Shown here piece by piece: positions 36,508 through 64,000 of a stretch of DNA of 64,000 nucleotides (positions within the stretch are counted from its first letter, which is position 1; each line of letters starts with the position of its first letter). The DNA is taken from contig JAYTTD010000090.1 of NCBI GenBank assembly GCA_043745235.1, positions 50,760-114,759 on the forward strand, given 5' to 3'. The position numbers and the translations under genes were made by a program. The notes under the pieces were generated by a model, which saw nothing but the letters and a program-made list of their open reading frames with translations, searched no databases and was not told the origin of the DNA. This DNA is from Nitrospira sp. (GTDB taxonomy: Bacteria; Nitrospirota; Nitrospiria; Nitrospirales; Nitrospiraceae).

Positions 36508-38715
36508 ATGTCAGACTTACCGCTCGATCAACTCGAACAACTCATCCAGGGCCACCACTGGGACCCGCGCGCAATTCTTGGTGCTCATCCGATGGCTCAG
36601 AGCAGTCCCTCTACTGTTGTGATTCGGTGTTTCTTGCCGAAGGCCACTGACGTGACCCTACTCCTCAATGAGCGAGACCGACAGTCCATTCCCATGACGC
36701 GCCTCCATGAAGCCGGACTATTCGAAGCAATCGTTCAGGGGCCACTTGGAACCAACCCCTATCGTCTCCGCGTAACCGACCATGCAGGACAGGTATCGGA
36801 GCGGCATGATCCCTATGCATTCCTCCCCCTCCTCACCGACTTTGAGCTACATCTCTTCGCCGAGGGAACTTTCTTCAAAGCCTATGAAACCATGGGAGCC
36901 CATCTCCGGACGGTTCAGGCTATCGCCGGAGTCCATTTTGTCGTCTGGGCACCGAGCGCTAAGCGAGTGAGTGTCGTGGGCGACTTCAAAGGATGGGATG
37001 GACGCCGCCATCCCATGACAAACCGAGGAGCAACCGGCCTCTGGGAACTTTTCATCCCCGGACTGACAGACCGCACGCTCTACAAATATGAAATTCGGTC
37101 GCGCCATCATGACGCACCGCTCTTAAAAGCCGATCCCTATGCAGTCGCATCAGAGCTGCGCCCCAAGACTGCCTCGATCGTCTGCGCACGCACTCCCTAC
37201 CACTGGAAGGACCAAGCCTGGATGACGGCGCGGGCACAGCGAGATCCGCTCGCCAGACCCCTCTCAATTTACGAAGTCCACCTCGGTTCCTGGATGCGTA
37301 TCCCTGAAGAAGGGAATCGCTGGCTGACCTATTCTGAGCTTGCCATAAAGCTCATCCCGTACGTGAAGGATATGGGCTATACCCATGTTGAACTCTTACC
37401 AATTTCAGAGCATCCGTTCGATGGATCCTGGGGCTATCAAACCACCGGCTATTTCGCCATCACCAGCCGGCACGGATCTCCCGAAGACTTCATGTCCTTC
37501 GTCGATACGGCACATCAGGCTGGAATCGGTGTGCTCATGGACTGGACCCCCGCGCACTTTCCGGACGATCCACATGGGCTCGCCCAGTTTGACGGCACGC
37601 ATCTCTACGATCATGCCGACCCACGGCTCGGGTACCATCCCGACTGGCATAGCCGCATCTTCAATTACGATCGCGTCGAGGTCCGGAACTTCCTTCTGAG
37701 CAGCGGGCTCTTTTGGTTCGATCGATACCACATCGACGGCTTGCGCGTGGATGCCGTTGCCTCGATGCTCTATCTCGATTACGGACGGAAAGAGGGAGAA
37801 TGGATTCCTAATCAGTTCGGCGGACACGAAAATATCGGGGCCGTTACGCTACTGAAAGACTTGAATGTTCTGGTCCACCGTGACTTCCCAGGTGCCATGA
37901 CCATCGCCGAGGAATCCACGCACTGGCCGGGAGTCTCACGCCCCACCTATGCCGGAGGACTGGGCTTCACGTTCAAGTGGAACATGGGCTGGATGCACGA
38001 CATGCTGGAATACTTCGGCCACGATCCTGTCCACCGCCCCTTTCATCAGAATCAGCTGACGTTTGGGCTCCTCTATGCCTTCGATGAAAACTTCGTCCTG
38101 GTGCTGTCGCACGATGAAGTGGTGCACGGAAAGCGGTCGCTGCTCGACAAAATGCCCGGTGACGAATGGCAACGCTTTGCCAATCTCCGCACTCTCTATG
38201 GTTTCATGTACGGGCATCCCGGCAAAAAAATGCTGTTCATGGGCGGAGAGTTCGGACAATGGCGGGAATGGAACCATGACACCAGTCTGGACTGGCATCT
38301 CTGCAATCTCGATCGGCACGTGGGGCTCCAGCGGCTCGTACGAGACCTCAACTGGCTCTACCGCCAGGAGCCAGCGCTGCACGAACTCGATCACGACTGG
38401 ACCGGTTTCCAGTGGATCGACTTTTGCGATGCGACCCATTCCGTGATCGCCTTCCTCCGAAAAGCCAAGGACCAGGATCATCAGATATTGTGTGTGTGTA
38501 ACTTCACGCCTGTTCCCCGCTACAACTACCGAGTCGGCGTGCCAGGCGCAGGCTACTACCGCGAACTGTTGAACAGCGATGCTTCGGCCTACGGAGGGAG
38601 CAACATGGGAAATGCAGGAGGCCTTGAGACAAACGCCGTCCCCGCCCATGGGATGCCCCATTCGCTCGCAGTCACACTCCCGCCTCTGTCGGTGTTGTTC
38701 CTGAAACGGATCTGA
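36508..38715 (+). CDS. glgB: 1,4-alpha-glucan branching enzyme
   Basis: 735 aa. 'GVHFVVWAP', 'DWTPAHF', 'DGLRVDAVASMLY', 'AEESTHWP' and 'LSHDEVVHGK' are GH13 branching-enzyme signatures. Confidence 0.96.
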   Translation: MSDLPLDQLEQLIQGHHWDPRAILGAHPMAQSSPSTVVIRCFLPKATDVTLLLNERDRQSIPMTRLHEAGLFEAIVQGPLGTNPYRLRVTDHAGQVSERHDPYAFLPLLTDFELHLFAEGTFFKAYETMGAHLRTVQAIAGVHFVVWAPSAKRVSVVGDFKGWDGRRHPMTNRGATGLWELFIPGLTDRTLYKYEIRSRHHDAPLLKADPYAVASELRPKTASIVCARTPYHWKDQAWMTARAQRDPLARPLSIYEVHLGSWMRIPEEGNRWLTYSELAIKLIPYVKDMGYTHVELLPISEHPFDGSWGYQTTGYFAITSRHGSPEDFMSFVDTAHQAGIGVLMDWTPAHFPDDPHGLAQFDGTHLYDHADPRLGYHPDWHSRIFNYDRVEVRNFLLSSGLFWFDRYHIDGLRVDAVASMLYLDYGRKEGEWIPNQFGGHENIGAVTLLKDLNVLVHRDFPGAMTIAEESTHWPGVSRPTYAGGLGFTFKWNMGWMHDMLEYFGHDPVHRPFHQNQLTFGLLYAFDENFVLVLSHDEVVHGKRSLLDKMPGDEWQRFANLRTLYGFMYGHPGKKMLFMGGEFGQWREWNHDTSLDWHLCNLDRHVGLQRLVRDLNWLYRQEPALHELDHDWTGFQWIDFCDATHSVIAFLRKAKDQDHQILCVCNFTPVPRYNYRVGVPGAGYYRELLNSDASAYGGSNMGNAGGLETNAVPAHGMPHSLAVTLPPLSVLFLKRI

Positions 38716-42705: not shown

Positions 42706-44469
42706 TCATCGATTCAGGTGATGATAGGGTGGTAGTGTCATCAATCTTCCATCCTCAACCGGTCCACCTACCGTAAAGTGGTAGAGCGACTGAAACGAAC
42801 GCGCCTTGATCCCCACGATCTCATGCACCGGATCGTCGAAGAAACATCCGATCCCGGTTGCCCGCACCCCCGCAGCTTCCGCTTCCAGGTACAGCACCTG
42901 CCCCAGCAACCCCGACTCCCAGAATAGACGTGGGTACCACCAAGCCCCTCCCTCCCGCAAGCGCCCTTCGAACTCGGCCATCATCCCCAGTGAGAAGGCA
43001 CTATCCCCAGCGATGTCTTGATGGCAACTCACTTGCACCGCGGCTTTTCGCGCATCGCCTTCAAGCAACCAGTAGAGAGGCAGATCCTCCGGACAACCTG
43101 GCGCCGGAGTCCAGATCAGCTCTGGATTCAGCGATTGCTGGATGAACGACAGCTTCAGTGGATCACGGACCAGAAAATAGAGCCCCGGCGTCAGACCCTC
43201 GACGCGGTGGACAAAGAGCATCACATGAATCGCCGGCTCGTAGGGCCAGACATCCCACGGCATCGGTCGATCCAATTGCGGCCGATCCGAGCGAGGCATC
43301 AGCAGCTGCATCATGTGGAAAAATGTCGTCGCGGAGATCGATGTCTTGCCATCGAACGATACCGCGCTCCGCCGCTGGCGAATGATCTGGCCGGCCAGCT
43401 GCCCCTCGTGAAACGTGAACGGTGAAACGTGAGAAGTCCGCGGGACCACGACCGAGACAAACGTTCGTTCAGAAGACGTCTTCCATGAAGCCTCTGCTGC
43501 TTCATCAATAATGTCCCAATGCACGCCATGTTCACCACTCAACCGATTGGCATTTCCATTCCACTTTCCTGCAGCGAGATCCTTGACCACCGCTGGATCA
43601 AGGAAAAGCGGGATATCGACCACATCCTTACGTTGCACGCCTAACGTTTCACCTTTCACATTTCCAGAAGGCCAAATCACCGCCAGACAGTCCGGATGTT
43701 CCGGCTCAACTTCTGTAAAGTCATCCACCCGATTGGTCCCCAACAATAGGGCAACCGTGTTCTGTTCCACACCATCCAATAGCGCCATGTTCCAGCCCAG
43801 CGTGGCGGCCGCGATCCGCGCCGAACCAATCGCATGACCGACATCGTGATTGCAGTAGCGAAACGCCCGCTCGCCATATTTCCAGGCCTCACGCCAATGC
43901 ACCGAAGTCAGCCCAAACAGAAAGGCGCCAGGCGGAAACAGTGCCAGCAGCAGAGCGACCTGTTCGGCAGGAAACTCTGCCCGAAACTCCAGACCATGCT
44001 CCTTCGGCGCGTAATGATAGAGCCCGGGATTCAGATCGAGGCCATCGATCTGCGGAAATACCGCATAGCCTTCCGTCGGATGCAGATTGCCGGACGACGG
44101 ATTACTCCGTAACGCCCATTCCATCTCCCCGCCTTTTTTCCACGCGGATAAGGCAAGCGCAAATTCGAAAAATCTGGAAAGGGAACGCATGTTCACAGGC
44201 TGACAAGGAACCGCCCCGAGCTGATAGATCGCGTCATAGGCCGGCGACAGCGGCTCCTCATCCGGCCTCAGCAACGGAAGCGGAATCAGTTGTGAACCTT
44301 CGAATCGCCGAAACGGATCAGGCTGATTCGCCCAATCCAGATACCCAAGCGCGCGAGCATAGCGATTGAAGTAATGCTTCGTCTGAACGTGATAGCGGAT
44401 GACCCGATCAATGGGATCGGTCGAAACAGGCTCGGCGGATGTAGCGGGAACTGGCTTCTCGGTGCTCAT
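42706..44469 (-). CDS. SagB/ThcOx-type double nitroreductase-fold dehydrogenase
   Basis: 587 aa. 'YHVQTKHYFNRYA...LDWANQPDPFR', 'RSNPSSGNLHP', 'YCNHDVGHAIG', 'RRSAVSF' and 'GIGCFFD' are typical of this family. Confidence 0.75.
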   Translation of the reverse strand: MSTEKPVPATSAEPVSTDPIDRVIRYHVQTKHYFNRYARALGYLDWANQPDPFRRFEGSQLIPLPLLRPDEEPLSPAYDAIYQLGAVPCQPVNMRSLSRFFEFALALSAWKKGGEMEWALRSNPSSGNLHPTEGYAVFPQIDGLDLNPGLYHYAPKEHGLEFRAEFPAEQVALLLALFPPGAFLFGLTSVHWREAWKYGERAFRYCNHDVGHAIGSARIAAATLGWNMALLDGVEQNTVALLLGTNRVDDFTEVEPEHPDCLAVIWPSGNVKGETLGVQRKDVVDIPLFLDPAVVKDLAAGKWNGNANRLSGEHGVHWDIIDEAAEASWKTSSERTFVSVVVPRTSHVSPFTFHEGQLAGQIIRQRRSAVSFDGKTSISATTFFHMMQLLMPRSDRPQLDRPMPWDVWPYEPAIHVMLFVHRVEGLTPGLYFLVRDPLKLSFIQQSLNPELIWTPAPGCPEDLPLYWLLEGDARKAAVQVSCHQDIAGDSAFSLGMMAEFEGRLREGGAWWYPRLFWESGLLGQVLYLEAEAAGVRATGIGCFFDDPVHEIVGIKARSFQSLYHFTVGGPVEDGRLMTLPPYHHLNR

Positions 44470-50170: not shown

Positions 50171-50282
50171 CACCCTCCAGCAATCTGATGTAATCCCTCT
50201 CCAACAAAAGCCCTTGATGGGGCTGGCCCCCCGTGTTCACGCAGTGCTACTATACAGCTCATTGCCCAACCAGGAGGCCTGC

Positions 50283-50600
50283 GTGGATCTTGATGCGTTC
50301 AGACAGATGGTCGCCAAAAACCCACGAGGCTTTCTCGGCCGTTTCGGGCTCGGGAATAAACTCATTCAGGAAGGCGGGCCGCTCGAAGAGATCGTCGAGC
50401 ACCTGACCGTCGCCACGCAGCTAGATCCAACCCACGTCGCATCGCATCTGTTCCTGGGCCGCGCGCTTATCAAGCTGGGCAAAAAGGATGAGGCCAAGCC
50501 GATCCTCACTGCCGGCATCGACGCCGCGTTATCGGGCCGGTCTAACGGTGGACAGGACCTCGTACCGGAACTGCAACAGTTGCTTCGCGCGCTTGGATAA
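50283..50600 (+). CDS. small TPR-like helical protein
   Basis: GTG at 50283 with an AGGAGG RBS. 'LGNKLIQEGGPLEEIVEHLTVATQLDPTHVASHLFLGRALIKLGKKDEA'. The start is uncertain. Confidence 0.45.
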   Translation: MDLDAFRQMVAKNPRGFLGRFGLGNKLIQEGGPLEEIVEHLTVATQLDPTHVASHLFLGRALIKLGKKDEAKPILTAGIDAALSGRSNGGQDLVPELQQLLRALG

Positions 50601-50628: not shown

Positions 50629-50829
50629 ATGAATCTCGATGAAGCCAGAACACGCCTTGAATCAGCCGTGACTCAGTATGGACAGCATGCCGCCCCGGCG
50701 ATCGATTTGGTCATGAGCGAAGTCCGATCCGACATGGGCAAGGGCGCGTTCAACGAACTGGTCGAGGAGTTCGATTTGGAACTTTTGTACGGTATCGCCC
50801 CGATGGAAACGGACCACTCGAGCAGCTAA
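50629..50829 (+). CDS. small acidic hypothetical protein
   Basis: 66 aa with an AAGGGAG RBS. I recognise no family. Confidence 0.35.
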   Translation: MNLDEARTRLESAVTQYGQHAAPAIDLVMSEVRSDMGKGAFNELVEEFDLELLYGIAPMETDHSSS

Positions 50830-51949: not shown

Positions 51950-52759
51950 ATGCATCTGCTTGGACTAGTGATTCAATACGTCTCCAACGGTTGCAAACGA
52001 ATCGGTGGGGCGGTCTTTCGTATCACTCAATTCCTAGACGCTCTATTACCGGCACTCTTCTCCCCCACTCAACTTTCCAAACTCATTCACGTGCACTACG
52101 AAGACCGCTATCGTGATGCTTCTGGACGCTATTCCGCGGAGGCCTACGGAACGGAGCTTTTAGAGTGGGAGGAAGACGTGCTCGCGCGCCACAAGATCGC
52201 GTCTGGCACAGCCGTGGTGCTTGGAGCCGGAGTGGGTCGTGAATCCATCGAGCTCGCCAGACGGGGACTGCATGTGATTGGACTTGATATCAGTCGAGAC
52301 GCCCTCCATCTGGCCGCTCTCACCGCGCGGGGAAAGTCTATACCCGTCACCTTTCTCCAGGCGAGCTTCTACGATATCCCGACCCTCCCTGCCCGCATCG
52401 ATTACATCTTCCTCTCCGGCATCATGTACAGCTCCATCCCTGGACGGCAGGCGCGGCAAGCCTGGCTCAAAGGCCTGCGCACCCATCTGAAACCTGGCGG
52501 ACTCGCCGTCCTGAACTATTACATTGACCGAACAACGGAAACTCAGACAGATCGGCGTGCCCGCACGTTCAATTCCTGGCTGGCCAGCCTGCCAGGAGCG
52601 AATCCCTTGTATCAACCGGGCGACCTCGTGTCTCAAGAGCACTTTCTCCACGCCTTCTTGAGCGAAGAAGAACTTCGGTCTGAGCTGACCGAAGCAGGAG
52701 CGACGATCGTTCAACTCAACTGGGACAAGCAGTTCACCGTGATCGCATGGCCTTATTAA
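51950..52759 (+). CDS. class I SAM-dependent methyltransferase
   Basis: Motif I 'AVVLGAGVGRESIELARRG' followed by 'VIGLDIS'. It starts 2 nt after the glycosyltransferase-like gene. Confidence 0.8.
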   Translation: MHLLGLVIQYVSNGCKRIGGAVFRITQFLDALLPALFSPTQLSKLIHVHYEDRYRDASGRYSAEAYGTELLEWEEDVLARHKIASGTAVVLGAGVGRESIELARRGLHVIGLDISRDALHLAALTARGKSIPVTFLQASFYDIPTLPARIDYIFLSGIMYSSIPGRQARQAWLKGLRTHLKPGGLAVLNYYIDRTTETQTDRRARTFNSWLASLPGANPLYQPGDLVSQEHFLHAFLSEEELRSELTEAGATIVQLNWDKQFTVIAWPY

Positions 52760-52848
52760 ACCGTCTTGGGCGGGTCATCGAGAGCTGATCGAACTCGGCG
52801 AGAAATACCGCTGGAAGCGGCTTGGAGGATTTGCTATTCTCCTGCTCT

Positions 52849-53160
52849 ATGAACACCACCTCCATCTACGCCAGACATCCTGATTATGTACAGCGCGACG
52901 TAGCGGGAGAATGTATCCTCGTTCCCATCCGCCGATCCCTCGCAGAAGCGAACAGCATTTACGTCTTGAACGAAACGGGGGCGGCCCTATGGAATCGTCT
53001 TGACGGCACACATCGGCTGCAAGACATCACGGCGGCCTTCTGCATAGAGTACGACGTCACAACAGATCAATTGCACCGGGATGTTGAGACCCTCCTGGCA
53101 GACCTACTTTCGATTCATGCCATTGAAGAGGTTGCCGTTGCCGATGCTCCCACGGGATAA
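52849..53160 (+). CDS. PqqD-family peptide chaperone (RRE-type leader-binding protein)
   Basis: 'VAGECILVPI......IYVLNETGAALWNRLDGTHRLQDITAAFCIEYDVTTDQLHRDVETLLADL' is the standard PqqD pattern. An alternative TTG start lies at 52822. Confidence 0.8.
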   Translation: MNTTSIYARHPDYVQRDVAGECILVPIRRSLAEANSIYVLNETGAALWNRLDGTHRLQDITAAFCIEYDVTTDQLHRDVETLLADLLSIHAIEEVAVADAPTG

Positions 53161-54058
53161 ACTCAATCACCTCCCAGAGCGGTTTCCCGTCGCCTGCCAG
53201 TGGGAAATCACCTGCCGCTGCAATCTGCATTGCGTGATGTGTTACACGGATTGTTTCAATCGACCTGACTTCATCCGCCAGGAACTCGCCACCTCAGACA
53301 TCCTCCGCATCATGGATGAGATGGCCAACGCCGGCACGCTCGAACTCTGCTTGACCGGCGGCGAACCAATGATACGGCCTGATTTTTTTCAGCTGTACGA
53401 GCACGCCATCCGCCGCGGTTTTCTTGTGACGGTGTTCACCAATGGCACATTGATCACGGAGGCTGCCGCGGACCATTTCGCGACGCTACGTCCCCATCAA
53501 ATCGAGATCAGCCTGCACGGACTGACAAAAGAGATCTTTGAGCGCATCACCCAAGGCACAGGGTCCTATCACCGCTGTCTTGATGGTATCAAGCTGCTGC
53601 TCGATCGACAGGTTCCCCTCACACTCAAGAGCACGGCGATGACGCTCAACCAGCATGAAATTCTTGCCATCAAACAGTACGTCGCCTCGCTTGGATCGGT
53701 CCGCTATAAACTCGGGGAAGAGATGCGGCCAGAACTCGATGGCGGAGCTGGCCCGTTTCACTACGCGCTCTCCGAAGGAGACTTGAGAATCCTCAATCAA
53801 CAAGACGCCGATCTTTGGAAAGAATCCTGCCAGCAACCACGCACGGATGATCTCCCCCCCTGCCGAAGCGGGATGCAACGATTCCACATCGACGCCTATG
53901 GGAAACTGCAACTCTGCTCAGGCAATCGACGGCAGAGCTACGATCTTCTGAACGGGTCGTTCCGGGAAGGCTTCTTCGAGGCCATGCCGACATTCGCGTG
54001 CGAGTGGAAAGCGCCCGTGGCGTCAGAACCGATGCGCCCGACGGTGTACCATGCCTGA
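53144..54058 (+). CDS. radical SAM enzyme with partial (twitch-like) SPASM domain, paralog 1
   Basis: CX3CX2C 'CNLHCVMC', 'LTGGEP' and 'CRSGMQRFHIDAYGKLQLC' (CX12GX4C), but no CX2CX5C block. It overlaps the PqqD stop. Confidence 0.88.
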   Translation: MLPRDKLNHLPERFPVACQWEITCRCNLHCVMCYTDCFNRPDFIRQELATSDILRIMDEMANAGTLELCLTGGEPMIRPDFFQLYEHAIRRGFLVTVFTNGTLITEAAADHFATLRPHQIEISLHGLTKEIFERITQGTGSYHRCLDGIKLLLDRQVPLTLKSTAMTLNQHEILAIKQYVASLGSVRYKLGEEMRPELDGGAGPFHYALSEGDLRILNQQDADLWKESCQQPRTDDLPPCRSGMQRFHIDAYGKLQLCSGNRRQSYDLLNGSFREGFFEAMPTFACEWKAPVASEPMRPTVYHA

Positions 54059-55181
54059 AGCCAGAGCCATTCCCACAATGCAGTATGGCGAGTTCAGCCG
54101 CATGGCGTATGAACGTGCGGTGCAACAAGACCGCATCATCAAAGCACAACTCGAGCTCACCTATCGCTGTAATTTGCACTGCCGCCATTGCTACACCGAT
54201 CCCTACAACGGCAAGGAGTTCTTCCCCCGCGAATTGAGCATAGCGGAGATTTACCGCCTCCTCGGCGAGATGCGCGACATGGGTGTGATGTGGCTCAATC
54301 TCACCGGTGGCGACATCTTCATGCATCCTGATTTCTTCGAGATCTATGAGGCGGCCAATCGGCAGGGCTTCCTGCTCCAGCTCTATACCAACGGCACGCT
54401 CTTTACCCGCGCGATCATCGAAAGATTAAAGACCATGCCCCCGTTTACCATCGATATCTCGTGCCACTCGGTGAACGAAGAACGGTTCGACTGGTTCACG
54501 CAAGTAGCAGGGTCCTATCGCGCCTTCATGCGCGGGATGATGTGGCTGCGGGAGAGTGGATTGCCCTTCACGTTGAAAACCAAGTTGATGGATTGGAACA
54601 AAGACGAGATCGACGACATCCGGACCTTCACCGAATCGTTTGGCCAACAGTTCGGCTATACCACGTCACTCTCACCACGACTGAACGGAGATTGCACGTC
54701 GCTCGCCTATCGAATTGACCCGCAAGATTTGAAACGCCTGGAACAGACCGATGTCCTCAGAGAGGCCGAAGATCTTTGCGCCGCACAAGAGGAGATTGCC
54801 ACACCTGACAGCGACCGCCTCTACCGGTGCGGATGCGGAACCAACTCCATTCACATCAATGCCTGGGGCGAGCTCGGCACCTGCACATTGCAGTATGAAC
54901 ATCGAGTCTCGCTTCGGACACATTCCTTGCAAGATGCGGTCGCACAGGTGTTTGGAGCCGTCCGATCGATGCGGTATCAGAGCGACAGTCCTTGCCGCTC
55001 CTGTGACATTCACCGATTCTGCGAGAAGAAACCGACCGATGCCCGATGGGAACAAGGTGAGGCCGAAGCCCCCATCCCCTACGATTGTGATATTGCGTTA
55101 GTTCGTGCGGAAACCACCGTTCGCCAGCCCCTAATTCACCCGTTGAGGAAAGGGGCAGTGGCCGCGGTGAAAACACAATAA
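54051..55181 (+). CDS. radical SAM/SPASM-domain enzyme, paralog 2
   Basis: 'CNLHCRHC', 'LTGGD', 'CGCGTNSIHINAWGELGTC' and 'CRSCDIHRFC' (CX2CX5C). It overlaps the stop of paralog 1 by 8 nt. Confidence 0.9.
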   Translation: MPEARAIPTMQYGEFSRMAYERAVQQDRIIKAQLELTYRCNLHCRHCYTDPYNGKEFFPRELSIAEIYRLLGEMRDMGVMWLNLTGGDIFMHPDFFEIYEAANRQGFLLQLYTNGTLFTRAIIERLKTMPPFTIDISCHSVNEERFDWFTQVAGSYRAFMRGMMWLRESGLPFTLKTKLMDWNKDEIDDIRTFTESFGQQFGYTTSLSPRLNGDCTSLAYRIDPQDLKRLEQTDVLREAEDLCAAQEEIATPDSDRLYRCGCGTNSIHINAWGELGTCTLQYEHRVSLRTHSLQDAVAQVFGAVRSMRYQSDSPCRSCDIHRFCEKKPTDARWEQGEAEAPIPYDCDIALVRAETTVRQPLIHPLRKGAVAAVKTQ

Positions 55182-55218
55182 CATCGTTGTTCTCAATATG
55201 GTTTAGGAGAAACCAGCT

Positions 55219-55473
55219 ATGACCGAGAAAAAACCCTACAGCCCTCCGCAACTGTACGAAGTGACTTTGGACCAGGAGCAGGCGATTCTGACCGCCTGCA
55301 GTTTGACGACAATGTCCGTCGCTGCCGGTGTCGGCACGAACGGCTGTCGTGTAAGCGGCCGTTGTGAAACCGCCATGTGCGGTGGCGGCTCACCGGGAGG
55401 ATGCAAGCGATCATCCCTCGGGATGGTGTTCTGTGGCGTGACCTGCCACGACAGCGGCATTCGGGCATCATAG
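55219..55473 (+). CDS. candidate RiPP precursor peptide (84 aa, 7 Cys)
   Basis: AGGAGA RBS 8 nt before the ATG. Leader-like 'MTEKKPYSPPQLYEVTLDQEQ' contains YxxPxL. Cys/Gly-rich C-terminal part 'C..C.....C....CGGGSPGGC.........C...C' ends in '...GIRAS'. It is embedded between the maturase genes. Confidence 0.6.
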   Translation: MTEKKPYSPPQLYEVTLDQEQAILTACSLTTMSVAAGVGTNGCRVSGRCETAMCGGGSPGGCKRSSLGMVFCGVTCHDSGIRAS

Positions 55474-55481
55474 GTTTTTCT

Positions 55482-56387
55482 ATGCTCATTGCCCTGCAAC
55501 TTGGTGGATCTGTCTTTCACCTCCGAGAACCAAAAGATTATCCCCTTCTGGCATGGCCGATCCGTCCCTTTGATGTGTTCCTCGCACCGCCGGATGTACC
55601 GCCGGATTTCCAGATAGAGGTGACGGTCGTCCCGCACTTGCCTGAATTGGCAACCGGGCTACTCCGATTCGATGCAGGCCAAGGATATTGGAAACTCTTC
55701 GAGTCTGATGCCGGCTTTGTGATTGAGAGTCTCAGTCCATTACTCCTTCAGCCGCGTGCTCGCGCCCAGGTCTCTCACGACTACCGCACAATCCGCGCAT
55801 GGGTTCTGCCAGAACTGCATTTAGGGCAAGTCGGTTGGAGTCCGATGCACCTGTTCAATCCCATCGTGGAAATTTGCCTCCTCTCTCGCCTCGCCTTGGA
55901 TGGAGGATTACTCCTTCATGCCGCAGGCCTCACAACCCAGGAAGAGGGCTACATCTTTACCGGTGACTCAGGAGCCGGCAAATCTACCATCGCACAGTTT
56001 TTCGCGGAACGAGGCGCGCTGGTGCTCAGCGATGAACGACTGATTATCCGCAAGAGCGCCGATAACTTCATACTCTACGGCACACCATGGGTCGGATCCG
56101 GGAACTATGCCCACAATGCGCAGGCCCCGCTCACACAGCTCTATTGCATCAGTCATGGGACGGAGCAGCATACGATCTCTCTCTTGTCCCCTCGCGCCGT
56201 CTCGCAAGAACTCTTGCGCCAGTGCTTCCTTCCGCTCTGGAGTCGCGACGCGCTCGAAGCGACGCTGGCAACCGTTACGGATCTCGTACAGCAGATTCAC
56301 TGCCGGGCGCTGGCAGCGCTCAAATCGCCGGATGTCGTAGATGTTGTGCTGACTCAACGCCACCTATCCCCGATAGGTTCACGATGA
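55482..56387 (+). CDS. HPr-kinase-related (HprK C-terminal-like) P-loop kinase
   Basis: 'LLLHAAGLTTQEEGYIFTGDSGAGKSTIAQFFAERGALVLSDERLII' matches the HprK_C core. It starts 9 nt after the precursor stop. Confidence 0.75.
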   Translation: MLIALQLGGSVFHLREPKDYPLLAWPIRPFDVFLAPPDVPPDFQIEVTVVPHLPELATGLLRFDAGQGYWKLFESDAGFVIESLSPLLLQPRARAQVSHDYRTIRAWVLPELHLGQVGWSPMHLFNPIVEICLLSRLALDGGLLLHAAGLTTQEEGYIFTGDSGAGKSTIAQFFAERGALVLSDERLIIRKSADNFILYGTPWVGSGNYAHNAQAPLTQLYCISHGTEQHTISLLSPRAVSQELLRQCFLPLWSRDALEATLATVTDLVQQIHCRALAALKSPDVVDVVLTQRHLSPIGSR

Positions 56388-57442
56388 AAACAATCGCCGC
56401 TGCCGACTTTCTTGATGCTCTGTCAGCGAAGGCTGCGCAGGCACGCAGGCCTGAGGGAGTCACGTTCGAATTGACGTATGGCTGCAACCTGCGTTGCGTC
56501 CATTGTTACAACCCGACGCATCGTGCCTTGCCGCATGAACTCACGACCTCAGAGATTTGCTCGCTATTAAACCAAATCGCCGACCTTGGAGTGCTCACTG
56601 TAACCTTCACAGGAGGCGAACCGAGCGTGCGCCCAGACATCGAACACATTCTTCGGCATGCACGCCAACAGGGTTTGGTTATACAACTCTTGACCAATGC
56701 CACGCGCATCACGCCTTCGTTCGTCACAGTGCTCAGAGAAATCGGTGTGGCGCAGATGAACGTCTCTATCTACGGAGCAACGGAAGCGACCTATGAACGA
56801 ATGACCGAGGTTGCCGGCTCCTATCGGCAGTTTCGGCAAGGCTTGAACTGCCTCGCTGATGGTCAGTTACCGGTGACCGTCCGAATGCCGGTCACCACCA
56901 TCAACTACGAGGAGATTCACGCCTGTCGGGAATTGACAGAATCCCTGCATATGAAGTTCCAATACTGCCTGGAAATCATGACGTCTATTACAGGCGACCC
57001 GACGCCACTCCAATATCGGCTTGACCCTGAGCGAAAAGTCCGAATCGATCAAGAGCTACTCTCATACCGCACGATGGACCAGCCCGAAGCATCCTGTTCG
57101 ACTCAACAGCCTTTCATCGAATGTGCCTGCGGTCAGAGTCGATTTGCGATTACTCCCTATGGCGAAATGAATCTCTGCACCGCCTTCCCTATTCCGCGCT
57201 ATGATCTCCGCACCGGCACGGTGAAAGAAGGTTGGGAGATCCTTAAACAGACGGTCGATCAGGCTCATCCCAACCATCGTTACGAATGTCCGACCTGTGA
57301 GGTACGGCCTCACTGCCGCCAGGGTCGGAGCGACTCCTGGCTTGAAACCGGGGACATGAGTTCGTGCCTTCCACACTATAAAGAATGGGCTGAATTGGAG
57401 CATCGCACCTATGCCCTCCTCGACCCTCGACAACCTCGCTGA
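56384..57442 (+). CDS. radical SAM/SPASM-domain enzyme, paralog 3
   Basis: 'CNLRCVHC', 'FTGGEP', 'CACGQSRFAITPYGEMNLC' and 'CPTCEVRPHC'. ATGA overlap with the kinase stop. Confidence 0.9.
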   Translation: MKTIAAADFLDALSAKAAQARRPEGVTFELTYGCNLRCVHCYNPTHRALPHELTTSEICSLLNQIADLGVLTVTFTGGEPSVRPDIEHILRHARQQGLVIQLLTNATRITPSFVTVLREIGVAQMNVSIYGATEATYERMTEVAGSYRQFRQGLNCLADGQLPVTVRMPVTTINYEEIHACRELTESLHMKFQYCLEIMTSITGDPTPLQYRLDPERKVRIDQELLSYRTMDQPEASCSTQQPFIECACGQSRFAITPYGEMNLCTAFPIPRYDLRTGTVKEGWEILKQTVDQAHPNHRYECPTCEVRPHCRQGRSDSWLETGDMSSCLPHYKEWAELEHRTYALLDPRQPR

Positions 57443-58376
57443 CGCGTACACCCAAGTCAGCCTGATCAACAAACGGCTGCTCGATGAGTGTGAGATCGTA
57501 GGCCTGGCATTCCAGCGACAGGGCATCGAGTGTATTCTCCTGAAAGGAGCTGATCTGCTCTCACGCCTCTACGGAGTGCGTGGGATGAGGCCCCTCTCCG
57601 ATGTGGATCTGCTGGTCCATGAACAAGACCTTCCTGCCATTCATCGGCTGCTGATTGAAACCGGCTTTGTACAACAGATCGACGGCAACCCGGCCTATGT
57701 CTCACCTCAATCCACACTCTCTCTGGATCTGATCTCGGGACTTTGGTATCTCGACGAAGAGGGACTTGCCGCGCTGTGGGGACGGGCTCGGACTCGACCG
57801 CTCGGCCAGCTGACGGTCAAACAACTGGCCGCCGACGACCTGCTGCTCTATTTGATCGCCTACTCGGTCGTCCACCGAGGGCACCTTTGCCCTTCCTTTT
57901 TCACCGACCTCCGGCTGCTGATCGAGAAGGAACCGCTCGACTGGCCCACGCTTGTCGAGAATGCGGGCCGGCATTACCTGAAGATTCCTCTCTACCACGG
58001 CCTTCGCCAGCTGGGATTATCGAGCCCAGCCATAGGAATTCCTTCTGCCGTCATCCAACAGCTCGCGCCATCGACCATGGCTGAACGGACACTGGAGTTT
58101 CTTTTTCGGCGTTTGGTGACGACCCAGCCCCTCCCCGAACTTGGACACTTCTTATTGTGGATCACGCAACCGCCAGGGCGCAGGCTGGCCTGGCTTCGTC
58201 GCACCCTCTTCCCATCATTGCTCTTCCTCACCTATCGCTATGGAAATGAAAGTACGAAGCGACCCCGCCGCATCAAAATCACCAGATGGTGGCAATTGGC
58301 ACGAGCGGGAAACATCTTGATTGCCCGCGTGCTGATCCGGCTCGTCATTGACCAGCCAACAAGGGCAACCTCGTGA
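57411..58376 (+). CDS. NTP_transf_5-type (uncharacterised) nucleotidyltransferase family protein
   Basis: 'ILLKGADLLSRLYGVRGMRPLSDVDLLVHEQDLPAIHRLLIETGF' is the signature region of this family. It overlaps the rSAM stop by 32 nt. Confidence 0.75.
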   Translation: MPSSTLDNLADAYTQVSLINKRLLDECEIVGLAFQRQGIECILLKGADLLSRLYGVRGMRPLSDVDLLVHEQDLPAIHRLLIETGFVQQIDGNPAYVSPQSTLSLDLISGLWYLDEEGLAALWGRARTRPLGQLTVKQLAADDLLLYLIAYSVVHRGHLCPSFFTDLRLLIEKEPLDWPTLVENAGRHYLKIPLYHGLRQLGLSSPAIGIPSAVIQQLAPSTMAERTLEFLFRRLVTTQPLPELGHFLLWITQPPGRRLAWLRRTLFPSLLFLTYRYGNESTKRPRRIKITRWWQLARAGNILIARVLIRLVIDQPTRATS

Positions 58377-59191
58377 TTCACCTCGTACCTTCTCTCAGTT
58401 TGGATGGTCGTTTTGCTGCGCAGGATTTACCAGACGCGCTCCAACTGCCTCTTCTGAACAGTATGGTCGTGCCTCGTGTCGTCTCATCGAGCATGACGCC
58501 GACGATTCAAGCAGGCGACGAACTTGAAATCGGTCCTCCGACCTCCCTCACCCTAGGCGCGATCGTGGTATTCCGGCTCGACACCATGCTCGTCTGCCAC
58601 CGCATCACTGCCATTCATTCACAAGGCATGCTCTCGACGAGAGGCGACGCCACGCAGGGCGCCTGCGAGATCGTTCAGCCAGGCTCTGTGATCGGAGTGG
58701 TCAGGGGAGTGCTACGCGAGGGCTCTCACGTGTCTCTTGGGCAAAGCCCGCACAGAGCATCAGCCGAGGCACCACCGACCAGCATCAAATGTCGCGTTCA
58801 GACTGTGATCCTCCGGTCAGCCACCGGGAGTATTCGTATCCTTGCGGGAGTCACACTCTTTCAGCATATGCTGACCCTATTGCTCCGATGGACAGCCACG
58901 ATCGATGTCCTCACTCCGGCACCACTCCAATCCCTCCCCTCCCACGCCAAGGTCGCCTCGTTCACATTCCGAATGTTTCCACACATTACCGGACTTCTCG
59001 CTGTTTCCAGCGGGCAGAAATCGACACGGTATGTCCTCCGGCTGGGACCGTGGCGACTGGCCCAATACGACCCGGAGACAAAGTCCCTCCTGCTCCGCCA
59101 ATCCCTCTGGGGTGCCGGCCTGGAGCCGTTCGTTCGACAAATACTCGTAACTACTCAGGTAGATAGGCTGAAGGCTCATGGAATAGGATAA
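58373..59191 (+). CDS. S24/S26 (signal-peptidase-I-like) serine peptidase domain + unknown C-terminal domain
   Basis: 'VVSSSMTPTIQAGDELEI', 'GAIVVFRLD', 'CHRITAI' and 'STRGDAT'. GTGA overlap with the upstream gene. The C-terminal ~140 aa are unassigned. Confidence 0.6.
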   Translation: MIHLVPSLSLDGRFAAQDLPDALQLPLLNSMVVPRVVSSSMTPTIQAGDELEIGPPTSLTLGAIVVFRLDTMLVCHRITAIHSQGMLSTRGDATQGACEIVQPGSVIGVVRGVLREGSHVSLGQSPHRASAEAPPTSIKCRVQTVILRSATGSIRILAGVTLFQHMLTLLLRWTATIDVLTPAPLQSLPSHAKVASFTFRMFPHITGLLAVSSGQKSTRYVLRLGPWRLAQYDPETKSLLLRQSLWGAGLEPFVRQILVTTQVDRLKAHGIG

Positions 59192-59252: not shown

Positions 59253-59395
59253 TTGCGCTTCGGCCTTCAGTCTTCAGCCTAAATACCTGAGTAGTTGCCA
59301 ACAAACACACATCCTTTTGCCCGTTCTGTCCGTAGGATGCTATAGTCGTGGCGGACATGAGATGATGCTAGCTGTTCCTCATAACTCGCTCGCGT

Positions 59396-59998
59396 ATGGA
59401 TAACCCCCCACGACTCGCTACATCGATGATCGACCCAACCTTGCTCGCTCGTGTCGCCAAAGGCGATCAGCAGGCGTTCAGCCAGCTCTATGACCATTCG
59501 AGTACGCTCTTGTTCACATTGGCAGTCAGAATCTTAGGAAATCATGAGGAAGCGGCGGAGCTCTTACAGGATGTCTATTTGGAAGTCTGGCGGAAGGTTT
59601 CCCGTTATGACGTCGGACGTGGAACCCCGGTCGCATGGTTGGTCACCCTCACCAAGAGTCGGGCCATCGACCGGCTGCGGGCCAGAGCGGCACGAGGCTA
59701 TCGGGCCACGAGCTCGCTGGAATCCGAACCTGCTGCACAGGTAGCCGATCTGGGTCCGAGCCCGTTTGAGACGCAGGCTGATCAAGAACTGCGTATTGCA
59801 GTTGGCGCAGCTGTGGCGGGATTGCCCCAGGCACAACAGCAGGCGATTGGACTAGCCTACTACGAAGGACTCTCCCATACTGAGATCGCCGCGCGCTTGA
59901 ACCAGCCGCTTGGGACCGTGAAGACACGGATCAAACTTGGGATGTCGAAACTCCGTGATGGTCTCCAACCGTGGCGGAACCAAGGTGATCTCCAATGA
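59396..59998 (+). CDS. ECF-type RNA polymerase sigma-70 factor
   Basis: Region 2 'LLQDVYLEVWRKVSRYD...WLVTLTKSRAIDRLR' and region 4 'LAYYEGLSHTEIAARLNQPLGTVKTRI'. An alternative start lies at 59426. Confidence 0.92.
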   Translation: MDNPPRLATSMIDPTLLARVAKGDQQAFSQLYDHSSTLLFTLAVRILGNHEEAAELLQDVYLEVWRKVSRYDVGRGTPVAWLVTLTKSRAIDRLRARAARGYRATSSLESEPAAQVADLGPSPFETQADQELRIAVGAAVAGLPQAQQQAIGLAYYEGLSHTEIAARLNQPLGTVKTRIKLGMSKLRDGLQPWRNQGDLQ

Positions 59999-61011
59999 CG
60001 CATGAAGAACTCCAAGAATCGGTTCCCCTATATGCTGCTGGCGCGTTGGACCGAATCGAACGACAGGCGCTGGAAGCCCACTTACTCTCCGGCTGCGCCT
60101 CCTGTCACAGTGCGCTGAAGGACTACCAATCCGTCGCCGCGCTCCTCCCGCTCAGCCTCAGTCCAACCCGCCCTCCGCGCTCCCTCAAAGCCACGATCAT
60201 GGCCGAACGAAACCCCACGCCGATTCCAGTGGAAGCGGCGACTAATGGACCGGCTCGGCCAAGTCTTGAGCCCGGCGAATGGATGGAGCACCTCTTTCCT
60301 CCTGTCGCCCCTGCCCGATCGTTGTCATTACCTTGGGCCCTTGGCCTGGCTACCCTCCTAATCGTGGGAGTCGGCGGATATCTCGCGTGGAACGTGTCGA
60401 CACAACGTTCAACCGACACATCGAACATTCAGCAGCTCGAAGCATCGCTCCAGGATAAGTCGGGAAAACTTGCCGCTGTGCAGCGTGAGGCCACCGACCA
60501 AGCAAAAACCCTCGACGAATTGCGCAACGAATTACAGCAACGAACGAACGAAGCGGCGGAAGCCAAGGAACAACTAGCTCTGCGTGAGGCTGAACTGGAA
60601 GAGACTCGTGTGCAATTAAGCCAGCGAGGCGCCGGTCGCGCCATGGGGACTCCGCAAGATGAACTAGCCGCAATCCTTCGAATTCCCAACGTCAAAGCTG
60701 TGTCTCTCACCGGATCGGATATGGCAAAGCGGGCCGCGGGATTCCTCCTCTACGATGCTCAAACCCAAAAAGTCTGGCTCTACTCCGTGAACCTTCCGGA
60801 AAATCCCACGGGCACGACCTATCAGCTGTGGGCCATTCACGACAAACCCGTGAGCGTCGGGACCTTTCAGCTCGCTACCGGAGAAACCGCTCACCTACTG
60901 ATGAGGACAGTGCCAAGCTTCAGCGATGCAAAAACTTTCGCTGTCAGCCTTGAGCCTTCAGGCGGTCGCCCGCAACCGACCGGACCGATATATCTTTTGA
61001 GCCGATCGTAA
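59995..61011 (+). CDS. anti-sigma factor (zf-HC2 N-terminus, TM segment, RskA-like C-terminal domain)
   Basis: 'HLLSGCASCHSAL', one TM segment, a coiled coil and C-terminal 'YQLWAIHDKPVSVGTF...FAVSLEPSGG'. ATGA overlap with the sigma gene. Confidence 0.85.
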   Translation: MTHEELQESVPLYAAGALDRIERQALEAHLLSGCASCHSALKDYQSVAALLPLSLSPTRPPRSLKATIMAERNPTPIPVEAATNGPARPSLEPGEWMEHLFPPVAPARSLSLPWALGLATLLIVGVGGYLAWNVSTQRSTDTSNIQQLEASLQDKSGKLAAVQREATDQAKTLDELRNELQQRTNEAAEAKEQLALREAELEETRVQLSQRGAGRAMGTPQDELAAILRIPNVKAVSLTGSDMAKRAAGFLLYDAQTQKVWLYSVNLPENPTGTTYQLWAIHDKPVSVGTFQLATGETAHLLMRTVPSFSDAKTFAVSLEPSGGRPQPTGPIYLLSRS

Positions 61012-62707: not shown

Positions 62708-62797
62708 GGAGAGGTGCGAGAGTGGCCGAATCGGGCAGTCTCGAAAACTGCTGTCCTGGCAACGGGACCGTGGGTTCGATCCCCACCCTCTCCGCCA
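62708..62797 (+). tRNA. tRNA-Ser (anticodon CGA)
   Basis: Acceptor GGAGAGG/CCTCTCC, anticodon arm GCAGT-CTCGAAA-ACTGC, long variable arm, T-arm GTGGG-TTCGATC-CCCAC, encoded CCA. Confidence 0.92.
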
Positions 62798-62947
62798 AAT
62801 TTCAACCGGTTGTGTATCAAAGTTCGTGTCGATTGTACCTAAAGCCTCCTCTAGTGTCTCCGGAAGTGTAGCAATTTTCTGCTGAATGCAGGCATCCAGA
62901 CGGTTCGCTGTCTCCTTCACGTCCTCTTCGCTGGCAAGGGACACACT

Positions 62948-64000
62948 ATGAAATCTCACGAAACAGAACCCTCTCAAGTGCTGCGCGATAAAACTGACAA
63001 GAGCCTAGAGGCTGAGCGGGGCAAAACCGACGAATACCTTGAGCAAAAAAGTAAGACGGTCGAAGAAGAGGCCAGTGAGACAATCCGCTTGAGTCGGCTT
63101 GCCGCCGATAAAAACCGTGAAAGTCAACGTGCGGAGGTGGACCTCGACAAGAAACATCAACTTGACGTTACTGGTACTCAAACGACACAGTTGGACGACA
63201 AGATTTTAACTCAGGAGCGCGAACGGTCCGACGAAGCCAAACGTGTCGAACGGCAAAAAGAAGATCGTGCTCGGACCCGGGAGCGCTTTCAAAACCGATT
63301 GATCACCGAAGCTCGCCTTGAAATCGAGCGTAAGGAAACAGACAATAATCTTCTCGAAGAACGAGTTGGCAGCGACTTAGAGTCCGAACACAACTCTACC
63401 CTGCTGTCAGGCGAAACAGTTTCCCACGACATGACGAAATCGGCACTTGTGACGAGAGATCAGTTTCTCGCGATTGTAAGTCACGACTTGCAAAATTCCC
63501 TCGTAGCTATTTCGATAGGTGCTCATTTGATGCGGAGTAATCTTGATCGTGACACAGTTGATACAGTTAGTCTTCTCCGAAACCTCGGAATAATAGAGCA
63601 AAGCGTCGCGGGCATGGACCGCATGATCAGTGACCTACTTGATGTAGAGCGAATGTCACATGACAAGCTAATTCTTAAGCCTGAACGGGTCGACCTTCGC
63701 ACTATTTTACAAGAATGTGTGAATCTATTTGCGCCTATCGTTTCAAGTAAGTCATTTTCAATGACCATTTACCCATGCCCTGAACCGATATTCGCTGACC
63801 TCGATCATGACAGAATTCTTCAGGTGCTATCTAATTTGATAGGGAACTCACTGAAATTCACCCCCAAGGGAGGCGCCATTGAGCTTTCTGCACGAAAACA
63901 GGAGACTCAAGTCGAAATTTCGGTAACCGACAATGGACCTGGAATTTCCAAACAGACACAGGCAAGAATTTTCGAAAAGTTCTCGCAGCTGAAAATGAAC
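62948..64000 (+). CDS. sensor histidine kinase, 3' end outside the window
   Basis: Absent from the ORF track because no stop is reached. The frame is open from the ATG at 62948. It has a long coiled-coil N-terminus, H-box 'FLAIVSHDLQNSL', N-box 'LSNLIGNSLKFTPKGG' and G1 'DNGPGI'. Confidence 0.85.
   Translation, partial: MKSHETEPSQVLRDKTDKSLEAERGKTDEYLEQKSKTVEEEASETIRLSRLAADKNRESQRAEVDLDKKHQLDVTGTQTTQLDDKILTQERERSDEAKRVERQKEDRARTRERFQNRLITEARLEIERKETDNNLLEERVGSDLESEHNSTLLSGETVSHDMTKSALVTRDQFLAIVSHDLQNSLVAISIGAHLMRSNLDRDTVDTVSLLRNLGIIEQSVAGMDRMISDLLDVERMSHDKLILKPERVDLRTILQECVNLFAPIVSSKSFSMTIYPCPEPIFADLDHDRILQVLSNLIGNSLKFTPKGGAIELSARKQETQVEISVTDNGPGISKQTQARIFEKFSQLKMN

Follow-up and report, generated by a model that had tools for sequence, protein, structure and literature searches.

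Nitrospira includes the main nitrite oxidisers as well as the complete ammonia oxidisers of soils, water treatment and drinking water, and little is known about its specialised peptides. We analysed a stretch of 64,000 nucleotides from a Nitrospira sp. genome (contig JAYTTD010000090.1 of assembly GCA_043745235.1; hereafter the window), in which an open reading frame (ORF) of 84 amino acids lies inside an operon for a PqqD-family protein, three radical S-adenosylmethionine (rSAM) enzymes, a kinase-like protein, a nucleotidyltransferase and a signal-peptidase-like protein. In our judgement this ORF is very probably the gene for the precursor (A) peptide in an uncharacterised Nitrospira pathway to a ribosomally synthesised, post-translationally modified peptide (RiPP). 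The evidence comes from the conservation of the peptide, from the likeness of its N-terminus to leaders bound by a RiPP recognition element (RRE), and from its linkage to the kinase-like and rSAM genes.

The probable precursor gene and its operon

The operon was defined by Pfam and NCBIfam scans of the genes in the window, and its features are collected in Table 1. An earlier note on this DNA had described an 84-residue peptide with a good ribosome-binding site between the second rSAM gene and the kinase gene; coordinates, ribosome-binding site and position were all reproduced, and on re-reading the seven cysteines (C27, C43, C49, C54, C62, C72 and C76) with their spacings, the YSPPQL motif and the last residue, Ser84, all match. 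The upstream rSAM2 gene stops at 55181 and the kinase-like gene most likely begins with the ATG at 55482, 8 nt past the peptide stop, and the peptide ORF fills the only sizeable gap in this tightly packed, overlapping operon. Automatic ORF calling gave earlier starts that overlap the neighbouring genes, namely a GTG at 55377 for the kinase-like gene (55377-56387) and an ATG at 56087 for rSAM3 (56087-57442), both on the + strand; the lengths of the orthologs (301 and 352 aa) and overlaps of the ATGA type indicate that the true starts are 55482 and 56384.

Table 1. Position of the precursor gene, its sequence elements and the surrounding operon genes in the window
Feature	Position	Strand	Evidence or remark
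Weakly glycosyltransferase-like (GT-like) protein, 365 aa	50850..51947	+	TIGR00661 E=1.9e-5, far below cut-off
SAM-dependent methyltransferase	51950..52759	+	PF13649 E=5e-13; syntenic in nearly all loci
Discrete PqqD-family RRE	52822..53160	+	PF05402 E=6e-17
rSAM1	53081..54058	+	PF04055 E=1e-22; true start probably ATG 53144
rSAM2, SPASM-like	54051..55181	+	PF04055
Shine-Dalgarno sequence AGGAGA	55205..55210	+	Read from sequence; spacer of 8 nt to ATG
Precursor peptide gene, 84 aa + stop	55219..55473	+	ORF and translation
Putative leader, residues 1-25	55219..55293	+	Conserved residues, profile match to TfuA leader, putative cleavage boundary
Putative RRE-binding motif Y7-x-x-P10-x-L12	55237-55254	+	Within putative leader
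A26-C27-S28, putative core start	55294..55302	+	Tyr-Cys spacing; Ser28 as alternative phosphorylation site
C43-R44, second family-wide Cys	55345..55350	+	Invariant in alignments A2 and A3
C62-K63, third family-wide Cys and basic residue	55402..55407	+	Invariant in A2 and A3
C-terminal motif D78-S-G-x-R-x-S84	55450..55470	+	D78, G80, R82 and S84 invariant in A2
Predicted HprK/PEPCK-fold P-loop kinase-like protein (ScmC family PF27840)	55482..56387	+	Fold search; TIGR04355 E=6e-10, below cut-off
rSAM3, SPASM-like	56384..57442	+	PF04055
NTP_transf_5 nucleotidyltransferase	57411..58376	+	PF14907 E=1e-27
Putative leader peptidase, archaeal-type signal-peptidase-I-like (SpI-like; SipW/LppS-like), S24/S26-type	58373..59191	+	TIGR02228; weak PF00717
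Extracytoplasmic function (ECF) sigma factor	59396-59998	+	Directly after operon
RskA-type anti-sigma factor	59995-61011	+	Directly after operon

Conservation and selection

A search of 5.8 billion proteins returned 112 homologs of the peptide at 96-46% identity; no domain annotation stood on any of them, and the named ones were entries of the kind "hypothetical protein" from Nitrospirae or Nitrospira. The identical sequence is already called in an NCBI record as an unnamed gene, and scans of Pfam and NCBIfam gave no model for the family. For an analysis of selection, 29 long-form orthologs recovered from genome loci were compared over 81 aligned codons. The proportion of differences was 0.68 at synonymous sites (pS), which are near saturation, and 0.21 at non-synonymous sites (pN), giving a pN/pS of 0.31; by region the ratio was 0.21 for residues 1-33, 0.40 for residues 34-77 and 0.20 for residues 78-84. 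Variable sites fell on codon positions 1, 2 and 3 in 47, 39 and 80 of the 81 codons. Because of this ratio and this codon-position pattern, the + strand frame, rather than the overlapping antisense ORFs, appears to be the one that is translated and selected, and judged by its substitutions the ORF is a genuine, conserved gene under purifying selection. The earlier note had tied its claim to conservation of the ORF in syntenic clusters, where it was indeed found conserved, under purifying selection and often in tandem.

The wider peptide family

A Nitrospira profile run against 1.84 billion representative proteins retrieved 192 clusters at 50% identity (E < 1e-3), mostly of 59-72 aa. The family consensus starts with M..KKPY..PQ[LIV]..V.L..EQA[IV]L[ST].CS, passes through a Ser/Thr-rich stretch, and is followed by C[RK], then after 4-12 residues by C[KR], and after another 12-17 by a C-terminal [DN]SGxRxS. 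This is a precursor-like layout, in which the N-terminus is conserved, the middle variable and a short C-terminal motif again conserved; the peptide itself is of low complexity and rich in Gly, Ser and Thr, unlike a folded domain. In alignment A2 the leader residues K5, Y7, P10, V15, L17, Q21, A22, I23 and L24 are invariant.

The seven-cysteine pattern put forward by the earlier note is correct in its positions, but only Cys27, Cys43 and Cys62 are conserved family-wide, so that it was dropped as a family signature. Exactly three cysteines are present in 107 of 124 representatives, and the comparison identifies Cys49, Cys54, Cys72 and Cys76 as additions of the window's lineage to a three-Cys ancestor. 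The spacing from Tyr7 to the first Cys is 20 in all 118 representatives in which both motifs were located. The first and second Cys have a spacing of 14-18. Ser comes directly after the first Cys in 221 of 256 members, and of 145 three-Cys members 140 have Lys or Arg right after the third. At the position of Ser28, however, more than 30 otherwise intact members carry A, T, H, N, E, V or Y instead. The C-terminal Ser is present in 115 of 124 representatives (93%), and most of the exceptions are visibly truncated or frameshifted.

One subgroup ends in Cys (P0212, P0253, P0297 and P0298; locus L070, 896-1093) and has the leader KKKYExPTLTKVVLNPAQAVLS.CS. L070 belongs to a metagenome-assembled genome (MAG) labelled Deltaproteobacteria, and there the Cys-ending peptide lies between a ScmC-family gene and an NTP_transf_5 gene. 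The subgroup suggests that a side-chain nucleophile at the C-terminus is what matters.

Some matches to the peptide profile were set aside. P0300 ("Omnitrophica") has neither YxxP nor a RiPP context and was rejected as a member. The profile is also matched, over 8-21 separate stretches, by four long proteins of 447-1647 aa (P0115, P0136, P0182 and P0217). P0136 consists of a unit of about 52 aa (…SCHVSRRYQQITGNKSYFLPCL…) repeated in tandem and is unrelated in architecture to the peptide family, and these multi-repeat matches are probably spurious products of low complexity.

Predicted recognition of the leader

The earlier note had also read residues 7-12 as the YxxPxL motif recognised in lasso-peptide leaders, and the family bears this out, with Y7 invariant, P10 at least 90% conserved and position 12 mostly L, I or V. 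The element [Y/W]xxPx[L/V/I/F/A] has been defined as RRE-binding by structure and mutagenesis (PMC13381572). When the PqqD protein was compared with the entire PDB, its four best matches were discrete RREs, namely TbiB1 (E=0.0016), LppB (9X8Z, chain 9x8z_B; second best, E=0.087), TfuB1 and PbaB1, the last three being individually non-significant (E=0.09-0.34); its best NCBIfam matches were lasso PqqD chaperones, below cut-off. The profile of the peptide family, for its part, had as top PDB match the leader of TfuA (fusilassin; 6jx3_A) in complex with TfuB1, in which EKKKYTAPQLAKV aligns with EKKPYSPPQLYEV of the window at E=0.16, a marginal value since the alignment covers 13 residues only. 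Because the motif is conserved and because the PDB matches of both the PqqD protein and the family profile agree with it, the reading of the residues around YxxPxL as an RRE-binding leader is supported at the level of sequence comparison.

Kinase-like protein, nucleotidyltransferase and putative leader peptidase

The AlphaFold2 model of the kinase-like protein is confident (pLDDT 88.3), and Foldseek matched it to the catalytic domain of HprK/P (TM 0.54-0.58 over the target) and to PEPCK with probability 1.0. Conservation is 95% or more for a P-loop G-SG-GKST, His146 and Asp184, the motif LSDER is conserved as well, and homologs carry PF27840 (ScmC in Pfam). Since searches of the kinase-like sequence against the PDB, like those of the SpI-like one, gave marginal or no matches, the assignment rests on the fold search, from which we take the gene product as a predicted HprK-fold kinase-like protein. 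In paeninodin-type systems, the HprK-like proteins PadeK, ThcoK and PsmK place phosphate on the precursor's C-terminal Ser, a residue described as "extremely conserved" (PMC9266682, PMC6993621), and PsmN is needed for the addition of hexose to the phospho-Ser of pseudomycoidin (PMC6993621). The NTP_transf_5 protein of the window has a conserved D-x-D and would by analogy be the same general type of enzyme as PsmN and LppN, whose membership of PF14907 we infer from their descriptions.

The SpI-like protein matches TIGR02228 with E=2.5e-10 and 40.4 bits, below the cut-off of 51.85 (its homolog at L067 reaches 51.0 bits), while its C-terminal half is without family assignment. Across 45 orthologs, Ser40 (in SxSMxPT), His76 (CHR) and Asp92 (GD) reach a conservation of 95% or more; they are the residue types of the LppS triad S29/H68/D93, as compared by description (PMC13381572). 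The earlier note had seen no obvious cleavage motif for the leader, whereas the family has a plausible one after residue 25: I or V at -3, an invariant Leu at -2, S, T, A or G at -1 and A-C-S at +1 to +3. The putative Thr25|Ala26 site fits the (-3,-1) rule of signal peptidases, and I-L-T|A-C-S parallels the LppA site F-E-T|A-Q-S (PMC13381572). An A-x-A|G site at V34-A35-A36|G37 was also considered and rejected, since at the equivalent position other members have A, D, N or Q. We give removal of the leader after Thr25 a chance slightly short of even. Phosphorylation of the terminal Ser84 is somewhat better placed, and we lean towards it: Ser84 is favoured over Ser28 because of its 93% conservation, the paeninodin precedent and its replacement by Cys in one subgroup, and Ser28 is disfavoured because intact members replace it by non-phosphorylatable residues and because LppK rejects Thr.

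The three radical-SAM enzymes

rSAM1, rSAM2 and rSAM3 are paralogs of 29-37% identity, all with CxxxCxxC. Besides this motif, rSAM1 has two conserved C-terminal cysteines and is twitch-like (conserved Cys 47, 51, 54, 261 and 279), rSAM2 has eight, its closest PDB sequences being SkfB and PqqE, and rSAM3 has seven, its closest being PqqE, SkfB and CteB. PqqE, SkfB and CteB are all enzymes that modify peptides. All three fell below the NCBIfam cut-offs, including those of ScmE/F, StsB, AlbA, PapB, MftC and PqqE; against the maturase families of sactipeptides and ranthipeptides (AlbA, SkfB, StsB, PapB and others) the best scores were 46-109 bits, with cut-offs of 300-850. Thioether chemistry on Cys of the sactionine or ranthionine type, suggested by analogy, can be put forward tentatively, at rather less than an even chance.

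Synteny, copy number and distant loci

The operon order, including the position of the peptide gene, is shared by about 50 Nitrospirota loci; the locus search with A2 used a lineage-specific pattern, so that its all-Nitrospirota result is uninformative on other phyla. Overall there are one to three copies of the peptide gene, and at least 16 loci have two or three tandem, diverged copies. Extra stand-alone intact copies, sited elsewhere in these genomes and with no maturation genes within 9 kb, occur at L052, L054, L058 and L061, and decayed, frameshifted stand-alone copies were found in Nitrospirota genomes at L063 and L064. In the MAG MFD01561.bin.2.89, four stand-alone precursor-gene loci were observed.

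More distant loci keep the association in other arrangements, the taxonomic labels beyond Nitrospirota being taken from MAG names. At L065 the order is a ScmC/HprK-like gene (30% identity to the window protein), the peptide gene and an rSAM3-like gene (34% identity). L067 (5623-18859), L068 (5303-16640) and L069 (2134-16916) retain PqqD, rSAM, rSAM, peptide, ScmC-like, rSAM and NTP_transf_5 genes, to which are added extra PqqD genes (two or three PqqD genes in all), a large TPR protein, a PMT_2 glycosyltransferase, a polysaccharide deacetylase and extra methyltransferases. Among these three, an S24-like peptidase gene is evident in L067 only, where it carries a fusion to a GNAT acetyltransferase, and L069 has two pairs of precursor and ScmC-like genes. 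The peptide gene thus remains linked to kinase and rSAM genes also at loci without the ECF sigma pair that follows the operon in the window, and it is functionally linked to the kinase-like and rSAM genes. That this linkage survives rearrangement and change of lineage is the strongest computational evidence for the peptide being the substrate of these enzymes.

Surroundings of the operon

Nearly all Nitrospirota loci have the ECF sigma/anti-sigma pair 3' of the operon, as does the distant L068. In a scan of 50-60 kb a single sigma-70-like promoter match was seen, at 59317-59346 just upstream of the sigma gene, and inside the operon no promoter or terminator exceeded the shuffled expectation; a regulatory tie between the sigma pair and the peptide operon is possible. 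The GT-like protein, the first large gene of the conserved, syntenic operon, had no match in Pfam. Between it and a small TPR gene (50214-50600) lies a 66-aa acidic ORF (50629-50829, + strand; MNLDEARTRLESAV…METDHSSS) for which the Pfam scan gave no match either; L001, a locus of 57% identity (3459-3659), and the distant L068 (3535-3735) have a called gene of 66 aa in the corresponding position, and the ORF may be a second small protein or peptide of the cluster.

The MsbA-like gene of the window closest to the operon is at 24064-25788 (- strand), 25 kb from the operon start, and in the related L001 an MsbA-like ATP-binding cassette (ABC) exporter is found three genes downstream on the opposite strand. 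It occupies there the position at which the window ends with a tRNA-Ser and a histidine kinase. The tRNA-Ser(CGA) (62708-62797, + strand) was called by ARAGORN and went unreported in the Rfam gathering-threshold scan of 50-64 kb, which gave no match; the histidine-kinase ORF (HisKA/HATPase_c, 62855-64000, + strand) continues beyond the window end, and GC is 0.49 over the last 1.5 kb of the window, starting just upstream of the tRNA. A 587-aa protein with a weak match to the nitroreductase family is encoded about 6 kb upstream of the operon (42706-44469, - strand), and a 589-aa counterpart lies near the L068 cluster (450-2219, - strand). Farther away are a GlgC-type nucleotidyl transferase, probably glucose-1-phosphate adenylyltransferase (28067-29362, + strand), and the branching enzyme GlgB (36508-38715, + strand); no tie of these two genes or of the window's MsbA-like gene to the peptide operon is evident.

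Discussion

The proposed pathway

Taken as a precursor, the peptide would be bound by the PqqD-type RRE through Y7-x-x-P10-x-L12 and presented to the enzymes, as in lasso peptides and in the LPPs of Bacillota. The three rSAM enzymes would modify the core at or through Cys27, Cys43 and Cys62, with thioether cross-links as the most likely outcome, and the four extra cysteines of the window's lineage could give further links. The HprK-like kinase would phosphorylate or polyphosphorylate Ser84, with Ser28 as the alternative, after which, as the analogy with PsmN suggests, the phosphate may receive another group from the NTP_transf_5 protein, perhaps together with the GT-like protein; a methyl group would come from the methyltransferase. 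Finally, the SpI-like peptidase, aided by the RRE, would remove the leader, most likely by cutting I23-L24-T25 | A26-C27-S28 after Thr25.

Comparison with known systems

The kinase, nucleotidyltransferase and S24-like genes, which the earlier note did not treat in these terms, would correspond by analogy to the tailoring set of paeninodin and of the LPPs (LppA/K/B/S/D/N; Popov et al., Nat Commun 2026, PMC13381572), and the LPPs are the closest system described. The core genes of LPP clusters encode an archaeal-type SpI-like peptidase, a discrete RRE, a kinase of the HprK-like type, an NTP transferase and also an exporter of the MsbA-like type, and each cluster encodes 1-3 precursors, 35-200 aa long and conserved at a YxxP-bearing N-terminus (PMC13381572), a range within which 84 aa is not long for a RiPP precursor, as the earlier note had thought it. 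Four of these five core gene types (SpI-like, RRE, HprK-like and NTP transferase) are in the window operon, from which the MsbA-like exporter is missing. Both systems have one to three precursor genes, a YxxP N-terminus, a variable C-terminal part, no macrolactam synthetase, and, around a cleavage site that is putative in the case of the window, a small -1 residue and a Ser at +3. Compared with the LPP consensus YxxPxVLxHQxIxFETxxS, the window family shares YxxPx[LIV], and its remaining xxVxLxxEQA[IV]L[ST]xCS has a similar pattern, hydrophobic at -3, Thr or Ser at -1 and Ser at +3, but comes into register only with a shift of 3 residues; the leaders differ in that one runs …VxLxxEQA[IV]L and the other …VLxHQxIxFET.

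The differences from the LPPs are nevertheless considerable. The window operon adds three rSAM enzymes (SPASM/twitch), a methyltransferase and a GT-like protein, whereas LPP clusters are without rSAM; its peptides have a core with three invariant cysteines and a conserved C-terminal DSGxRxS ending in Ser; and while the LPP product is linear with phosphorylation as its primary modification, the three rSAM/SPASM genes imply added chemistry, which would probably be cross-linking. Its hosts are Nitrospirota and further Gram-negatives, among them a Deltaproteobacteria-labelled MAG, and its locus is apparently inherited vertically, in contrast to the patchy LPPs of Bacillota. LPPs and paeninodins are stated to be restricted to Bacillota, and neither the text nor the supplements of that study mention radical SAM or Nitrospira (PMC13381572).

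With paeninodin and pseudomycoidin (PadeK, ThcoK, PsmK, PsmN) the window shares an NTP_transf-type enzyme that would further decorate the phosphate, but it has no lasso cyclase and no B2 protease, and has instead the SpI-like peptidase, the rSAM enzymes and a Cys-containing core. The conserved YxxPxL leader motif and the discrete RRE, which resembles B1 proteins, recall lasso peptides; a lasso peptide was rejected, there being no macrolactam synthetase or B2 protease domain in the operon genes, nor in the ten largest other ORFs, a scan that left aside three ORFs of 395-415 aa at 1.8-10 kb. An HprK-related protein (ScmC, PF27840), a PqqD protein (ScmD) and several rSAM/SPASM enzymes (ScmE, ScmF) are also combined in the SynChlorMet (Scm) cassette. 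The window operon differs from it by a third rSAM gene and by the NTP_transf_5, SpI-like, methyltransferase and GT-like genes, and a bona fide SynChlorMet cassette was rejected on the scores of the ScmC, ScmD, ScmE and ScmF models (22.1, 24.1, 91.7 and 82.9 bits against cut-offs of 125, 100, 400 and 400); the distant loci are likewise below the Scm cut-offs and match only the broader PF27840. We know of no precursor for the SynChlorMet cassette.

Sactipeptides and ranthipeptides (AlbA, SkfB, CteB, PapB, StsB) resemble the window system in their Cys-containing cores, SPASM/twitch rSAM enzymes and RRE-dependent leader recognition, but here the RRE is a protein of its own and not a fused domain, the rSAM enzymes are three separate paralogs, none of which reaches a family cut-off, and tailoring of the phosphorylation type with an SpI-like peptidase is not known in those classes. 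The pathways of mycofactocin (MftA/B/C/E/F) and pyrroloquinoline quinone (PQQ; PqqA/D/E) offer a PqqD-type chaperone and an rSAM/SPASM enzyme whose substrate is a small peptide of conserved C-terminus, as well as a peptidase, glycosyl-type tailoring and housekeeping-like inheritance; the window precursor differs by its greater length, its Cys-containing variable middle and its paralogs, and the operon by its kinase and NTP_transf_5 genes and by scores below the MftC and PqqE cut-offs. Among open-access papers and bioRxiv preprints we found no prior description of a RiPP that combines rSAM, HprK-like and NTP_transf_5 proteins, or of such RiPPs in Nitrospira.

Alternative explanations

The strict LPP pattern would place the phosphates elsewhere. 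In LppA the RRE-aided SpI-like peptidase cuts after Thr(-1), in F-E-T|A-Q-S, and LppK polyphosphorylates core Ser3 and does not accept Thr (PMC13381572); transferred to the window, where I-L-T|A-C-S has the same hydrophobic -3, small -1 and Ser +3, the kinase would polyphosphorylate Ser28, the third residue after the Thr25 cut, and DSGxRxS would serve otherwise, for instance as an acceptor site for rSAM chemistry or as an export signal. The SpI-like peptidase, common to the operon and the LPP clusters and not found in described paeninodin clusters, fits this well. Yet Ser28 gives way to other residues, Thr among them, in many intact members, and the terminal Ser is far better conserved and is exchanged in one subgroup for another nucleophile, Cys, so that we hold this reading to be unlikely. 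Somewhat less unlikely, though still doubtful, is a precursor on which the rSAM enzymes make no Cys thioethers but C-C or C-O links, epimerisation, methylation or Cys conversion, the conserved cysteines being metal ligands or disulfides in the product. The mixed best relatives in NCBIfam and the PDB, namely NirJ/AhbD-type enzymes, MftC, PqqE (which forms a C-C link), SkfB and StsB, leave room for such chemistry, as does the failure to reach any sacti- or ranthipeptide cut-off; against it, cysteines are the only invariant residues of the core besides the tail motif, and Cys-rich cores beside SPASM/twitch rSAM enzymes are the hallmark of sactipeptides and ranthipeptides.

The peptide might instead be consumed as a scaffold in the making of a small redox cofactor or similar housekeeping molecule, in the way that PqqA serves PQQ and MftA mycofactocin, and only a few conserved residues, such as those of DSGxRxS, would end in the product. 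The mycofactocin pathway likewise brings together PqqD, rSAM/SPASM, peptidase and glycosyl-type enzymes, MftC and PqqE rank with the best matches, the C-terminal motif of the peptides is conserved, and across Nitrospira the locus keeps a fixed place with apparently vertical inheritance; but a long peptide with a variable, Cys-containing middle, three cysteines at constrained spacings, and one to three diverging tandem paralogs besides stand-alone copies fit a scaffold poorly and speak for a peptide as the product instead of one small molecule, and we regard the scaffold as improbable. An unmodified small Cys-rich protein that merely shares the operon, for example a partner, metal-binding or regulatory, of the ECF sigma/anti-sigma pair, would agree with the presence of that pair after the operon in nearly all loci. 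It is hard to reconcile with an N-terminus that resembles an experimentally defined RRE-binding leader next to a gene for a discrete RRE, with a linkage to kinase and rSAM genes that holds also at loci lacking the sigma pair, and with the low-complexity Gly/Ser/Thr-rich sequence, and we consider it very improbable.

Several considerations also weigh against the precursor pathway as we propose it. Its chemistry is inferred throughout, the observed layers being sequence, conservation, linkage and fold, and no enzyme of the operon reaches a curated family cut-off, so that functions are assigned at the level of superfamily or fold only. Three rSAM enzymes for three cysteines are a numerical coincidence and not evidence, and rSAM/SPASM enzymes are also capable of forming C-C and C-O links, of epimerisation and of methylation. 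The kinase-like protein has D184-E185 where PsmK has D158-D159. The operon has no exporter, and no ABC gene was found between 50.2 and 62.5 kb. Lastly, a fixed chromosomal locus with apparent vertical inheritance is unlike typical antibiotic RiPPs, and would also suit a cofactor-like or envelope-associated product.

Implications

We regard the system as an RRE-dependent rSAM RiPP combined with the tailoring module of LPPs and paeninodins. That it is the founding example of an undescribed class, with a YxxP leader bound by an RRE, Cys cross-links made by three rSAM enzymes, a C-terminal phospho-Ser, release by a signal-peptidase-like enzyme and an LPP/paeninodin module outside Bacillota, is a tentative proposal, which we put at not quite an even chance. 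The locus supplies a concrete candidate substrate for an operon so far annotated just as "radical SAM", "PqqD" and "hypothetical", and it joins three separate lines of RiPP biology, namely the lasso-type RRE and leader, the module of HprK-like kinase, NTP transferase and SpI-like peptidase, and rSAM/SPASM cross-linking. The signature KKPYxxPQ[LIV]..V.L..EQA[IV]L..CS … C … C[KR] … DSGxRxS can be used as a genome-mining model, and the peptide family may hint at the type of precursor to be expected for "SynChlorMet"-like cassettes. If the proposal is true, the LPP/paeninodin tailoring module would reach beyond Bacillota into Gram-negative lineages. And because Nitrospira, comammox-type MAGs included, keeps the locus in a fixed place beside an ECF sigma/anti-sigma pair, the product may have a core physiological role, such as in metal handling, the envelope or signalling, rather than that of an antibiotic.

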